From Anaerolineae bacterium (GTDB lineage: Bacteria > Chloroflexota > Anaerolineae > Aggregatilineales > Phototrophicaceae), in the NCBI GenBank assembly GCA_034420635.1, contig DAOULD010000136.1, positions 14,372 to 78,371 of the forward strand: a stretch of 64,000 nt of DNA, in the 5' to 3' direction. Shown here in pieces: positions 19,814 through 23,036 of the stretch. The position numbers and the translations under genes were made by a program. Numbering within the stretch: the stretch's first letter is position 1; the number at the start of each line of letters is the position of its first letter. The notes below the pieces were generated by a model that saw only the letters and a program-made list of their open reading frames with translations, made no database searches and had not been told where the DNA came from.

Positions 19814-21211
19814 TCAGATGTTGAGGAAGCGGCCTTGCAAACCGTGCGCCACCTCTTTTATCGCTTCGCTCAAGGTGGGGTGGGCGTGTACGTTGCGCGC
19901 GATCTCGGCCGCGGTCAATTCGGCAGAGCGAGCCAAAGTCAGTTCGGGCAGCAGTTCCGTAACATCGTGGCCGATCATATGGGCGCCAAGGATTTCGCCA
20001 TAGCGCTTGTCGCTGATCACCTTGACGAAGCCGCTGGCGTCACCCATGCCCCGCGCCTTGGCATTGGCTTGAAAGGGGAATTTGGCAACCGCCACTTCGT
20101 AACCGCGCGCTTTCGCCTGATCTTCGGTGTATCCAAAGCTGGCGACCTGCGGCTGACAATAGGTGGCGCGCGGCATCATATCGAAATCGAGGGCAACGGT
20201 TGCTGCGCCCGCGATATTCTCCGCAGCGACCACACCCATGGCCTCGGCTACGTGGGCGAGCATCAATTTGGCGGTGACATCACCGATGGCGTAAATGTGC
20301 GGGATATTGGTCCGCATCTCTTCGTTGATCTCTATGGCGCCCCCGGCGTCGAGCGAAACTCCTGTGTTTTCCAGCCCGTATCCGGTCGTGCGCGGCTGGA
20401 AACCAATCGCCTGAAGAACGCGTTCGGCACGGAGTTGTTCTTGCTCGCCATCGTCAGTTGATACGTCGACGGTGACGCCACTGGCGTCTTCAACGATGGC
20501 CTCGACCCGTGCGCCAGTCATGATTTTGATGCCCATCTTCGCGTAGATCTTGCCGAGTTCCTTGCTCACCTCGGGATCTTCTAGGGGCAGGATACGATCC
20601 AGGAATTCGACCATGGTGACTTCGACGCCATAGTTGCGCATGATATAGGCGAATTCGACGCCAATTGCGCCAGCGCCGGCGATAATCACGCTGCCCGGCA
20701 GATTGTCTTCCATAATCTGTTCTTCGTAGGTGACAACGCGCTCGCTCAACGCTGTGCCTGGGATCAGACGTGTTGTGGCGCCGGTGGCGATAATGAGGTG
20801 CTTGAAGTTGATCGTTTCTTCGGAGCCGTCATTCAGTGATACAGCCATATTGTTGGCGTCCACGAGCGTCGCCCAGCCTTCAAAGGTCGAAATCTTGTTC
20901 TTGCGCATCAGAAACTGCACACCTTTGGTCAAGCCGTTGGCGACACGGCGACTACGCTTAAAGGCTTTGGCGTAGTCCAGGCTGAAGTCGCCGCTGATGC
21001 CAAAGGTGTCGGCCTCATTGTTAAGGATATATGCCAGCTCGGCGTTATGCAGCAATGCTTTGGAAGGAATACAGCCGACATTCAGGCATATGCCGCCCCA
21101 GTATTTCTTCTCGACGATCGCGGTATTCAGCCCAAGTTGGCTGGCGCGGATAGCGGCGATGTAACCGCCGGGTCCGGCGCCCAGCACAACCAGATCAAAT
21201 TCCTTAGCCAT
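19814..21211 (-). CDS. lpdA: Dihydrolipoyl dehydrogenase (E3)
   Basis: 465 aa. N-terminal FAD motif [13 protein letters not shown], redox-active disulfide [19 protein letters not shown] motif [13 protein letters not shown], and C-terminal dimerisation HAHPTLSE. Confidence 0.92.
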
Positions 21212-21300
21212 GGCGTTCTTGCTCCCGTTCGTTGATGAATGCGCAATTCGCCTAGTCTAGCGCAGGCGCGGCGCAAATTGAAGTGGGGCTGGCGCGAACC

Positions 21301-22052
21301 CCAGGGCAATCGCTGCAAATTGTTTCTTAGCGCCGAGTAGACCGAGGGTCGCGTAGACACTGACGGCCGACACTGACCGTCGGTCGCGTGGACACCCGCT
21401 AAGCCACCGGCACAGAGTTTTATATTAGCTAGCGAAGTTATCATGCAGTCAGCGGGCAGCCACTCCTAGAGAGTATTTGTTTTCGGTTTGTTTATTATCC
21501 GGCTTTGTCCGTTTCGGACAATAAAATATATTTTTCGGACAGTAGACGCGGTTTTCTGACCGAAACGGAGGAAAGGCAGGCGGCTGACGGTATGAATTTG
21601 GTTTGCCGGCGCGCCCGCCGCCATAAAGGTGGCTTCTGCTCCTGACATGCCCCTGACATGCCTCTGAACTGCCTCTAGCTGTCCCGCTAAATTCCGCAAG
21701 TGTATAGACACCGTATAGATACAGTCTGTTTTTTCGGGGGATACTTTTTAGAGTCTGGTGGTGGAGGGAGGAATAGGCGGATTGCATCGGCTGGGGACCG
21801 AGATTGAGAGCTTGCGATAATTGATCCATAGGGGGAGTGTATCATGATTCTGAGTAGAAATAAAGAACAAATGTTCAAGGTTTTTCGAGGTTGCCAAAAA
21901 TCGATTTCGGGCCTCTAGCAGGGTGGCGTTGGTCACGTAGATATTGATCTTCGACACAGCCCGCCGACATTGACCCTCAACACGCTCGGCGGCGAAATAG
22001 AGTTTGAATGTTATCTTCGCGGCAGATGTCAATTTTGATGCGATTGCCCTGG
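21301..22052. mobile_element. 752-bp non-autonomous (MITE-like) element or decayed IS, with no intact transposase ORF
   Basis: Perfect 13-bp terminal inverted repeats: CCAGGGCAATCGC at 21301-21313 and its reverse complement GCGATTGCCCTGG at 22040-22052. Weaker similarity continues about 12 bp inward. The ends are flanked directly by an 8-bp direct repeat CGCGAACC (21293-21300 and 22053-22060), consistent with a target-site duplication. Confidence 0.55.
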
Positions 22053-22159
22053 CGCGAACCCGATGTGCGGACTGCCCGGGTGTATTTCAATATTTTGGGA
22101 GGATGCTCCAGGAACTACAAAAGCGCATCGCCCTTTGGCGGGTTCTACGTACGGATTCA

Positions 22160-22223
22160 CCACAGAGGCACAGAGCGCACAGAGATTTTAAGAAAAAACT
22201 TCGTGTTCTTCGTGCCTTTGTGG
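22160..22223 (+). repeat. Long imperfect hairpin repeat (25-nt arms, 14-nt A-rich loop)
   Basis: 5' arm CCACAGAGGCACAGAGCGCACAGAG (22160-22184), 3' arm CTTCGTGTTCTTCGTGCCTTTGTGG (22199-22223). On the + strand this gives 18 Watson-Crick pairs, 4 G:U pairs and 3 mismatches. The G:U pairs become C-A mismatches on the other strand. Confidence 0.5.
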
Positions 22224-22349
22224 TTAATTTTGCTTTTGAACGGCAAAGCCATGTAATTTGCCAATAATCTGAAATGCACCCCTCTGCCTCACGCGCTGTT
22301 CATTGAGCAAGATTCCATGCTACAATAGCGTCAGGCGGAGGACAGAAGA

Positions 22350-22625
22350 ATGACCATCGACATCCCAGAAGACGTCGCCCTGCGTTTGGAACGGCTCGCG
22401 GAGCAGCGCGATACCAGCCCGGGCGAGTTGCTGCGCGACATGATTGAGCGCTATGCCAAAGATCAAACTGCGGATGACAAGCCCTGGGCGACATTGGCGG
22501 ACTTGGCGCGTCATGCGAAGCTAATGAACATGGCGTCGCCTGAACCGGTAAACACTGCCGAGCGCAGCCGCGAAATCTTGAATACAGAATACGCCGATTA
22601 TCTGAAGAGCCGCATTGATCCTTGA
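22350..22625 (+). CDS. vapB: Ribbon-helix-helix (CopG/VapB-type) antitoxin
   Basis: 91 aa. The N-terminal MTIDIPEDVALRLERLAEQRDTSPGELLRDMIERY fits an RHH fold pattern. Its stop overlaps the start of the downstream PIN gene (TTGA). Confidence 0.7.
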   Translation: MTIDIPEDVALRLERLAEQRDTSPGELLRDMIERYAKDQTADDKPWATLADLARHAKLMNMASPEPVNTAERSREILNTEYADYLKSRIDP

Positions 22626-23036
22626 CGCTCATCACCGATAGCAGCTTCTTAGTTGCGCTGTATGACAGCAGCGAAATACATCACGCGAAAGCAAACGATT
22701 TCTCAGCGAATCGGTCGGAGTCGATACTCGTGCCGGATCTTGTATTGCCGGAAGTAGGTTTCTTGCTCCGACGCAACTTGGGATATGCAAACAGCTTTAA
22801 TTTCTTTGATTTCTTCAACTATAGCTTTGTTAGACTTATACCTGCATTTGAGGAAGACTTGGCAAGGGTCTACGAGATTTCCCGTCAATATGACAGCGCC
22901 CAATTTGACATCGTGGACTAGCTGCATCATGGTCATCGCGGAGCGGCTGAACATCACGCGTATCGTGACCTTCGACCGGCGCGATTTCAGCGTGTTTCGT
23001 CCCAGTCACTGCGAGTATTTCGAACTGTTGCCTTGA
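22622..23036 (+). pseudogene. vapC: PIN-domain toxin VapC, disrupted by a +1 frameshift near 22919
   Basis: Frame 1 (22622..22921) encodes MTLITDSSFLVALYD...LVLPEV...QFDIVD then TAG. The canonical PIN C-terminus SCIMVIAERLNITRIVTFDRRDF continues in the +1 frame (ORF 22785..23036). Skipping the single base T22919 joins the two parts. Confidence 0.7.

Follow-up and report, generated by a model that had tools for sequence, protein, structure and literature searches.

A non-autonomous ISAs1-family element with non-coding cargo beside lpdA in a Chloroflexota genome, and the spacing of its relatives upstream of predicted sigma-70 promoters

The DNA studied here has an odd gap of 1.1 kb between lpdA and the vapBC genes, and the question is what fills this gap, where it came from and why it lies at this particular spot. 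The whole stretch analysed, referred to as the window, comprises 64,000 nucleotides from an Anaerolineae bacterium (Chloroflexota; GCA_034420635.1, contig DAOULD010000136.1, positions 14,372 to 78,371); coordinates given without a contig are those of the window. An earlier note, made from the letters of the sequence, had described a small insertion in the gap. We conclude that window 21302-22051 is very probably a non-autonomous element of the ISAs1 family that lands upstream of sigma-70 promoters and is moved in trans. It is a new miniature inverted-repeat transposable element (MITE) of this family with non-coding cargo, and in itself an ordinary kind of element; the family-wide rule, integration 18 nt upstream of -35 boxes, matters more than the element itself. 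Comparisons were made with the window's own genome (G000; 4.7 Mb, 227 contigs, 95% complete) and with genomes of the same genus, which carry G-numbers as well; G012 is the closest relative of G000.

The element measures 750 bp and its termini read CAGGGCAATCGC...GCGATTGCCCTG. The perfect terminal repeat comprises 12 bp (CAGGGCAATCGC at 21302-21313, GCGATTGCCCTG at 22040-22051), is continued inward by about 8 bp of looser similarity, and is flanked by a 10-bp target-site duplication, GCGCGAACCC, the left (21292-21301) and right (22052-22061) copies of which are identical at 10 of 10 positions. The inverted repeats and the flush duplication described in the earlier note are thus real and at the place given, but its repeats of 13 bp put each border off by one base, and its duplication of 8 bp (CGCGAACC) has to be extended to 10 bp. 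The borders were shifted by one base on each side because of the CAGGG/CCCTG ends and the 10-bp duplications seen in other copies and in the parent insertion sequences (ISs) described below. CAGGG at the start and CCCTG at the end are found in 12 other full-length copies (six in G000, six in G012), a few of them with one or two base changes; parent ISs open with CAGGG or CAGAG. The 10-bp duplications are present in all 12 of these copies and in the parent ISs. A repeat search of the window returned the arms 21301-21319 and 22034-22052 as well as a 13-nt direct repeat, CTGGCGCGAACCC, at 21289 and 22049, and the 13-mer CCAGGGCAATCGC has two sites only in the window, these being the two ends of the element.

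The left terminal inverted repeat (21302-21322, plus strand), in which the perfect 12 bp CAGGGCAATCGC are followed by TGCAAATTG, shares 21 of 24 bases with an IS end of G022 and resembles the IS end located downstream of the transposase gene (...ATCAAATTG). The right one (22031-22051; CAGGGCAATCGCATCAAAATTG on the minus strand) resembles the IS end upstream of the transposase gene, and in the 1210-bp ISs of both G022 and G053 the ends agree with element positions 731-750 at 20 of 20 bases.

The element belongs to a family of repeats. About 10 long copies of the 750-bp unit are present in G000 at 78-85% identity, together with many lone ends, and when the flanks are included in the alignment, homology ends precisely at CAGGG/CCCTG. 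Every copy is bordered by a 10-bp duplication of its own, e.g. TCGTTCACAT, AAAACCAGAC or GGGTGATCAT, and the further genomic copies that the earlier note had suggested looking for are hence at hand. The 4.7 Mb of G000 contain 283 occurrences of the end motif CAGGGCAATCGCTTCAAA (18-mer, up to 3 mismatches), as opposed to 0 in 1 Mb of shuffled sequence. There are about 140 relatives of the element in G000, and 37 intact end pairs with 10-bp duplications fall into size classes of about 255 bp and 660-750 bp. The short classes are considered younger than the 750-bp class because their best within-class pairs are more identical (94-98% versus 84-88%). At least 12 copies are present in G012, and further ones in G073, G065 and G021. 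The copy closest to that of the window, at G012:C25, is 86-88% identical and has the same unusual right end; no element occupies its site in G000 (C216:37901-37908). The copies at G000 C110 and G012 C32 are orthologues, as seen from the shared duplication ATGGTCGGTT, and are only about 84% identical, so that DNA free of constraint has diverged rapidly between G000 and G012. The orthologous copy and the empty sites in both directions indicate that the family was active around and after the G000/G012 split. With many dispersed copies that have their own duplications and that lack transposase coding capacity or a conserved open reading frame (ORF), the element is a MITE. It differs from the usual one in its size (750 bp versus less than about 600 bp) and in its origin, as the interior is unlike that of the IS and does not point to internal deletion.

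Empty sites were sought by joining the two flanks and comparing them with 60 genomes of the genus. In G059, G049 and G052, lpdA and vapB are about 140 bp apart, with one target copy (...GGGGCTGGCGCGATCGCGCTGTGCGG...) and no element; the single homologous 10-mer is GCGCGATCGC in G059 and GCGCGGTCGC in G049. An unoccupied lpdA-vapB site with a single target, which the earlier note had proposed as a check, therefore exists in three relatives. The same comparison contradicts the proposal that the element marks an islet including vapBC, since vapB follows lpdA in close relatives without any insertion. Insertion does explain the 1.1-kb gap; most of it is accounted for by the element together with a second MITE (see below), and no islet with vapBC was created. 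Two side observations concern the target. The native sequence in relatives (GCGATCGCGCTG) is similar to the element's own end (GCGATTGCCCTG) at 10 of 12 positions, possibly by coincidence, and octamers of the GCGATCGC type seemed frequent in a loose listing of end motifs in G000, an impression without a count.

The autonomous partner was found in sister genomes. Full-length ISAs1 transposases (NF033564, E 1e-108 to 1e-126) are encoded in many copies in G053 (15), G022 (21) and G082 (at least 27), and are multi-copy also in G008, G071, G061 and G001. These seven are metagenome-assembled genomes of Phototrophicaceae / Aggregatilineales (Chloroflexota). The ISs are 1210-1240 bp long, agree with the element over their terminal 18-20 bp and have the ends CAGGGCAATCGC[A/T]TCAAA or CAGAGCAATCGCACCA (parent IS ends CAGGGCAATCGCATCAAA) with perfect 10-bp duplications, which were found in 24 of the 27 copies of the 1210-bp IS. 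Their transposase of 378 aa matches Pfam DDE_Tnp_1_assoc (7e-34) and DDE_Tnp_1 (1.5e-26). The sequence that the element has in common with these ISs is confined to about 20 bp per end (blastn and tblastx, five parent ISs). The earlier note, which had left the family unassigned, correctly spoke of a MITE-like non-autonomous element and anticipated a partner with matching terminal repeats; the family is ISAs1. Nearly the same end, CAGGGCAATCGCATCA, is found in ISs of Chromatiaceae and Methylococcaceae.

Only two ISAs1 transposase fragments were found in G000 itself, at C53:51383-51643 and C157:14081-14182. The remnant at C53:51278 consists of a terminal repeat and a 104-aa transposase C-terminus (NF033564, 1.2e-28); in the Pfam DDE_Tnp_1 search of G000 this fragment sits 100 bp from a CAGGGCAATCGCATCAAATTGG end. 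A DDE_Tnp_1 fragment on C47 from the same Pfam search was considered as a partner and rejected, being unrelated to these ends. Pairing of ends up to 8 kb apart in G000 revealed no full-length IS, the largest pair spanning 1011 bp.

Two further observations were made on the ISs. Many flanks of the 1235-bp subgroup (ends CAGAGCAATCGCACCA; L181-L217; G082, G071, G008, G061) fit 9 bp, with 10-mers offset by one, and the two IS subgroups therefore differ in duplication length or in the exact terminus. In G022:C2, the identical ISs at 1070791-1074924 (L102) and 3594995-3599128 (L104) have swapped flanking 10-mers, ACCATCCACC being left of one copy and right of the other; this indicates recombination between IS copies, i.e. 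a large inversion or rearrangement.

Why the element lies where it does became apparent from the outward flanks of the 283 ends in G000, of which 271 are unique sequences. T, T and G occur at positions 19-21 in 46, 41 and 46% of them (background 22, 22 and 28%), and TAwAAT occurs at positions 42-47. This is the pattern of a sigma-70 promoter with a 17-nt spacer. A strict promoter match with the -35 at offsets 18-21 was obtained for 19% of the flanks and for at most 1% at any other offset from 1 to 44; random genome positions matched in 1.7% of cases at a looser 8-of-12 threshold. TTGACA with up to one mismatch is present at offsets 18-21 in 37 of the 283 flanks (2% expected, p 4e-19), and 62% of these hexamers are followed by a -10 box, versus 3.5% genome-wide (odds ratio 45, p 2e-24). 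Hence, whole promoters are marked and not a mere hexamer. A promoter-like site flanks 22 of the 37 intact MITEs on one side only; no MITE has such sites on both sides, and the two end types face promoters equally. ORF starts on the promoter sides cluster 60-110 nt from the element end, a test that discriminates weakly as long spurious ORFs are common in the G+C-rich G000.

The ISs of the sister genomes, young because their copies are identical, behave in the same way. A promoter-like site was found in 17/27 copies in G022/G053 and in 24/45 copies in G082/G071/G008/G061/G001 (about 21/41 without duplicate loci); the -35 boxes most often start at 19-20 and the -10 boxes at 42. It is thereby shown statistically that MITE and parent IS ends sit 18 nt (range 17-20) upstream of an outward-facing -35 hexamer of predicted sigma-70 promoters. 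The association is restricted to one side, is independent of element orientation and is base-precise. If the -35 hexamer is numbered -35 to -30, the 10-bp duplication consequently covers about -53 to -44.

The window copy lies at the modal promoter distance of the family. On the minus strand its left flank reads GGGTTCGCGC-CAGCCCCA-CTTCAAT-...-TAGACT and lies about 40 nt upstream of the lpdA start. The putative lpdA promoter (21254-21283, minus strand) would consist of a -35 box TTCAAT (21282-21277) or CTTCAA (21283-21278) and a -10 box TAGACT (21259-21254), with a spacer of 17-18 nt and at 18-19 nt from the left end of the element; its sequence is conserved in eight relatives. In G012, G022 and G066 the spot is occupied by other MITEs with the same ends, 17-18 nt from the same TTGAAG. 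The occupant in G022 has the duplication GGCGCGATTG/GGTGCGATTA at 18 nt from TTGAAG, and that in G066 is 17 nt away. At least two of these three insertions are clearly independent. The recurrent use of the spot in several species is ascribed to the fixed distance to one promoter.

The interior of the element is organised in modules. Left subterminal short direct repeats (GGTCGCGTAGACAC / GACACTGACCG units; 21341-21396, plus strand), differing in unit number among copies, are followed by a conserved non-coding core (21410-21900) and by right subterminal short direct repeats (21940-21978, plus strand), which are oriented as the left ones according to the repeat search and the copy alignment. The core contains a palindrome, TCCGTTTCGGACA...CCGAAACGGA, at 21508-21569 and a sub-module of about 160 bp (element ~314-474; 21615-21775) that is missing in the shorter members of G065 and G021. 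A unit of about 35 nt (GGTCGCGTAGACACTGACCGCCGACACTGACC) lies beside both ends in variable number. In an alignment of 13 copies, indels shift every frame and no reading frame is kept between copies. A cargo core of about 365 bp is found in G021 without ISAs1 ends, fused to other repeats; the core contexts of G021 and G065 share just a repeat of 320-370 bp, and a search for a gene common to them found none. The ~500-bp interior is non-coding passenger DNA made of reshuffled repeat modules. As a separate observation, the ~35-nt unit (GTAGACACTGACCGCCGACACTGACC…) occurs alone at dozens of sites across the genus with 90-97% identity, and is more conserved than the MITEs that contain it.

Another reading is that a functional cargo, either a small RNA gene or a regulatory cassette, travels between the two ISAs1 ends, and that the stretch persists because this cargo is useful to the host or to the element. 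We regard this as unlikely, although it is the best of the alternatives. Interior blocks are invariant in 13 copies, the ~365-bp core is retained in five species in varied contexts, and the conserved palindromes of 17 copies paired better in RNAalifold calculations than column-shuffled alignments (z -3 to -5). This pairing signal, however, is about equal on both strands and is therefore attributed to DNA palindromes rather than to an RNA gene; folding of the single sequence showed no excess over shuffles (z +0.24 and -0.41 for the two strands). Promoter and terminator scans revealed no strong promoter within the element; the two weak promoter-like sites that they gave do not exceed the number in shuffles. 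An Rfam scan of 20500-23000 with E up to 1 gave no match in the element, and those nearby were chance matches of miRNA models to the adjoining hairpin at 22152-22231. The cargo points to the neighbouring promoter in either orientation, and as the divergence from a master copy is about 7%, chance alone should leave many columns invariant.

A somewhat less probable alternative concerns the promoter distance, which might reflect survivorship or benefit, insertions occurring anywhere and those just upstream of promoters persisting, either for lack of harm or because the promoter profits from the element end. Intergenic insertions are the expected survivors, and as the duplication preserves the native sequence to about -53, they should be nearly neutral. 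But neutrality would permit any position upstream of about -55, whereas the observed peak is sharp, one to two bases in width: a single offset accounts for the -35 in about half of the flanks that have a promoter, and there are almost no promoters at the neighbouring offsets 1-17 or 22-44. The peak is the same in 100%-identical IS copies, for which there was little time for filtering. A promoter-helping end would predict an orientation bias, and none is seen. We consider survivorship improbable as the origin of the spacing.

That the element is a heavily decayed autonomous IS with a transposase gene mutated past recognition, the second option of the earlier note, is highly improbable. A length of 750 bp is large for a MITE, and the family is old, its copies being 78-88% identical. 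Against this, a six-frame search of the whole of G000 with an ISAs1 hidden Markov model (HMM) gave no transposase signal in any of the ~10 copies, tblastx and blastn matches to the five parent ISs end after the ~20-bp termini, and the core module is found outside ISAs1 ends too. The 550-750-bp architecture is common to all copies in five species, so that the short unit itself was amplified, with an interior of unrelated cargo. The statement in the earlier note that no transposase is recognisable in the interior is borne out by these searches. Chance as the origin of the terminal repeats and flanking duplication, for which nothing speaks but the small motif size, is excluded by the 283 ends, the 37 duplication-flanked pairs, the empty sites in relatives and the parent ISs, and the earlier note was right in calling coincidence very unlikely.

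Several points weigh against a non-autonomous ISAs1 element moved in trans to sites upstream of promoters. The putative lpdA promoter matches the consensus at just 7/12 positions, and about 40% of the elements have no recognisable promoter at the modal distance. Among ISAs1 ISs of other phyla, having the same ends and 10-bp duplications, a promoter-like site was seen in 2/15; the preference may be lineage-specific, or promoters of other phyla may be less consensus-like. The copies are old, the best match within G000 being 84% identical. In G012:C31 (L032, ~2001-2290) the junction of GCGCGAACCC with CAGGG holds a different MITE of about 290 bp, with its ends the other way round and no 10-bp duplication on the right (…CCCTG followed by TATGTGCGG); this occupant may be the product of replacement or rearrangement. 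An intact ISAs1 transposase did not turn up in the six-frame HMM search of the whole of G000, which may be due to the fragmented assembly and has a bearing on current mobility, not on ancestry. Finally, which promoter feature is recognised, protein or DNA, is entirely our inference.

According to the mechanism we favour, an ISAs1 transposase acting in trans would bind both terminal repeats of the MITE, excise or copy the unit and join it to staggered cuts 10 bp apart. Lineage-specific insertions and empty sites are indirect evidence of such mobilisation. The transpososome would recognise a promoter feature, supposedly the bound RNA polymerase holoenzyme or the shape of the promoter DNA. Positions of about -54/-44 correspond roughly to the upstream edge of the RNA polymerase footprint. 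Integration would fall about at this edge, a 'safe' site at which gene and core promoter stay intact, and insertions would be near-neutral because the duplication restores the native sequence up to about -53. That ISAs1-type transposases in general read promoters at about -54/-44, via the holoenzyme (sigma region 4 or the alpha C-terminal domains) or via DNA architecture, as a 'safe-haven' strategy of the family, is put forward tentatively, with a chance that we place somewhat below even. A literature search, of incomplete coverage, found no published target preference for ISAs1; promoter-proximal targeting is no part of the description of the family.

The gene downstream of the targeted promoter, lpdA (19814-21211, minus strand), encodes a dihydrolipoyl dehydrogenase of the lpdA type (Pfam Pyr_redox_2 7.7e-71, Pyr_redox_dim 3.2e-36). 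To the right of the element, at a distance of 15 bp, lies the second MITE, which is unrelated and about 207 bp long (22077-22283). It has the terminal repeats GGGTGTATTTCAATATTTTGG / CCAATAATCTGAAATGCACCC, probably a 5-bp duplication (CTGCC), and a 64-nt hairpin, CACCACAGAGGCACAGAG...TTCGTGCCTTTGTGGTTA. It is considered young because its copies in G000 (C87:3839-4044, C22, C28, C5, C49, C31) are 96-98% identical, and it is absent from the lpdA-vapB site of G059, G049 and G052. The vapC (PIN) gene at 22622-23036 appears to be disrupted: residues 4-96 of a 99-aa ORF match PIN (model 2-90 of 120), and a C-terminal end typical of PIN proteins (…RIVTFDRRDF…) follows in a different frame (22785-23036).

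The rule of integration applies to old MITEs and young identical ISs alike and in either orientation. If it holds, it provides transposon biology with a new and simple model in which the choice of target is linked to the transcription machinery, and explains the repeated use of one intergenic spot across species. Insertion sites would then represent free promoter annotation for uncultured Chloroflexota, and the rule would suggest a tool for placing DNA beside promoters while leaving these unbroken.

Among known systems, the ISAs1 family is the closest. ISArsp11, a member of this family, has the inverted repeat CAGGGCTGATGCAAAGTCG, beginning with CAGGGCTGATGC, and a 10-bp direct repeat (PMC6305408, Table 3). 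CAGGG termini and 10-bp duplications, as found here, are common to ISAs1, IS1358, the E. coli H-repeat/ISEc1, ISPmar4 and ISArsp11. The duplication of 8-10 bp expected for the family measures 10 bp in the window element and in the 37 MITE pairs, and the cognate IS of 1.2-1.5 kb with a single DDE transposase is represented by the ISs of the sister species. The window element differs in having no transposase and only its ~20-bp ends in common with them.

Bacterial MITEs and mobile insertion cassettes (MICs) include Nezha of cyanobacteria, Correia elements, RUP, the Tn3-derived TIMEs and the MICs of Bacillus cereus. Like the window element, they are non-autonomous and have the parent's terminal repeats, the typical duplication and many copies; they are mobilised in trans, as the window element would be. 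With its 750 bp the window element exceeds most MITEs in length, and its interior shows no relation to the parent IS. A cassette with non-coding cargo thus describes it better than a derivative by internal deletion.

Transposons that select their targets are exemplified by Ty1 and Ty3 at RNA polymerase III genes, Tn7 at attTn7 and IS1397/ISKpn1 in REP/BIME palindromes. The hot spots of IS5 and IS1 upstream of bgl, flhDC and glpFK have been attributed to DNA structure, and their distance from the -35 is not fixed. The elements described here resemble the target-selecting transposons in their fixed position beside a genomic feature, by which genes are spared; they differ in that they lie next to ordinary bacterial sigma-70 promoters, at a base-fixed distance (-35 minus 18). 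Ty3 and Ty1 read the transcription machinery; to our knowledge, no tethering factor is known for an ISAs1-type promoter association. If the proposal is true, promoter-reading ISAs1 transposases would be a bacterial counterpart of the tethering of Ty1 and Ty3 to the RNA polymerase III machinery.

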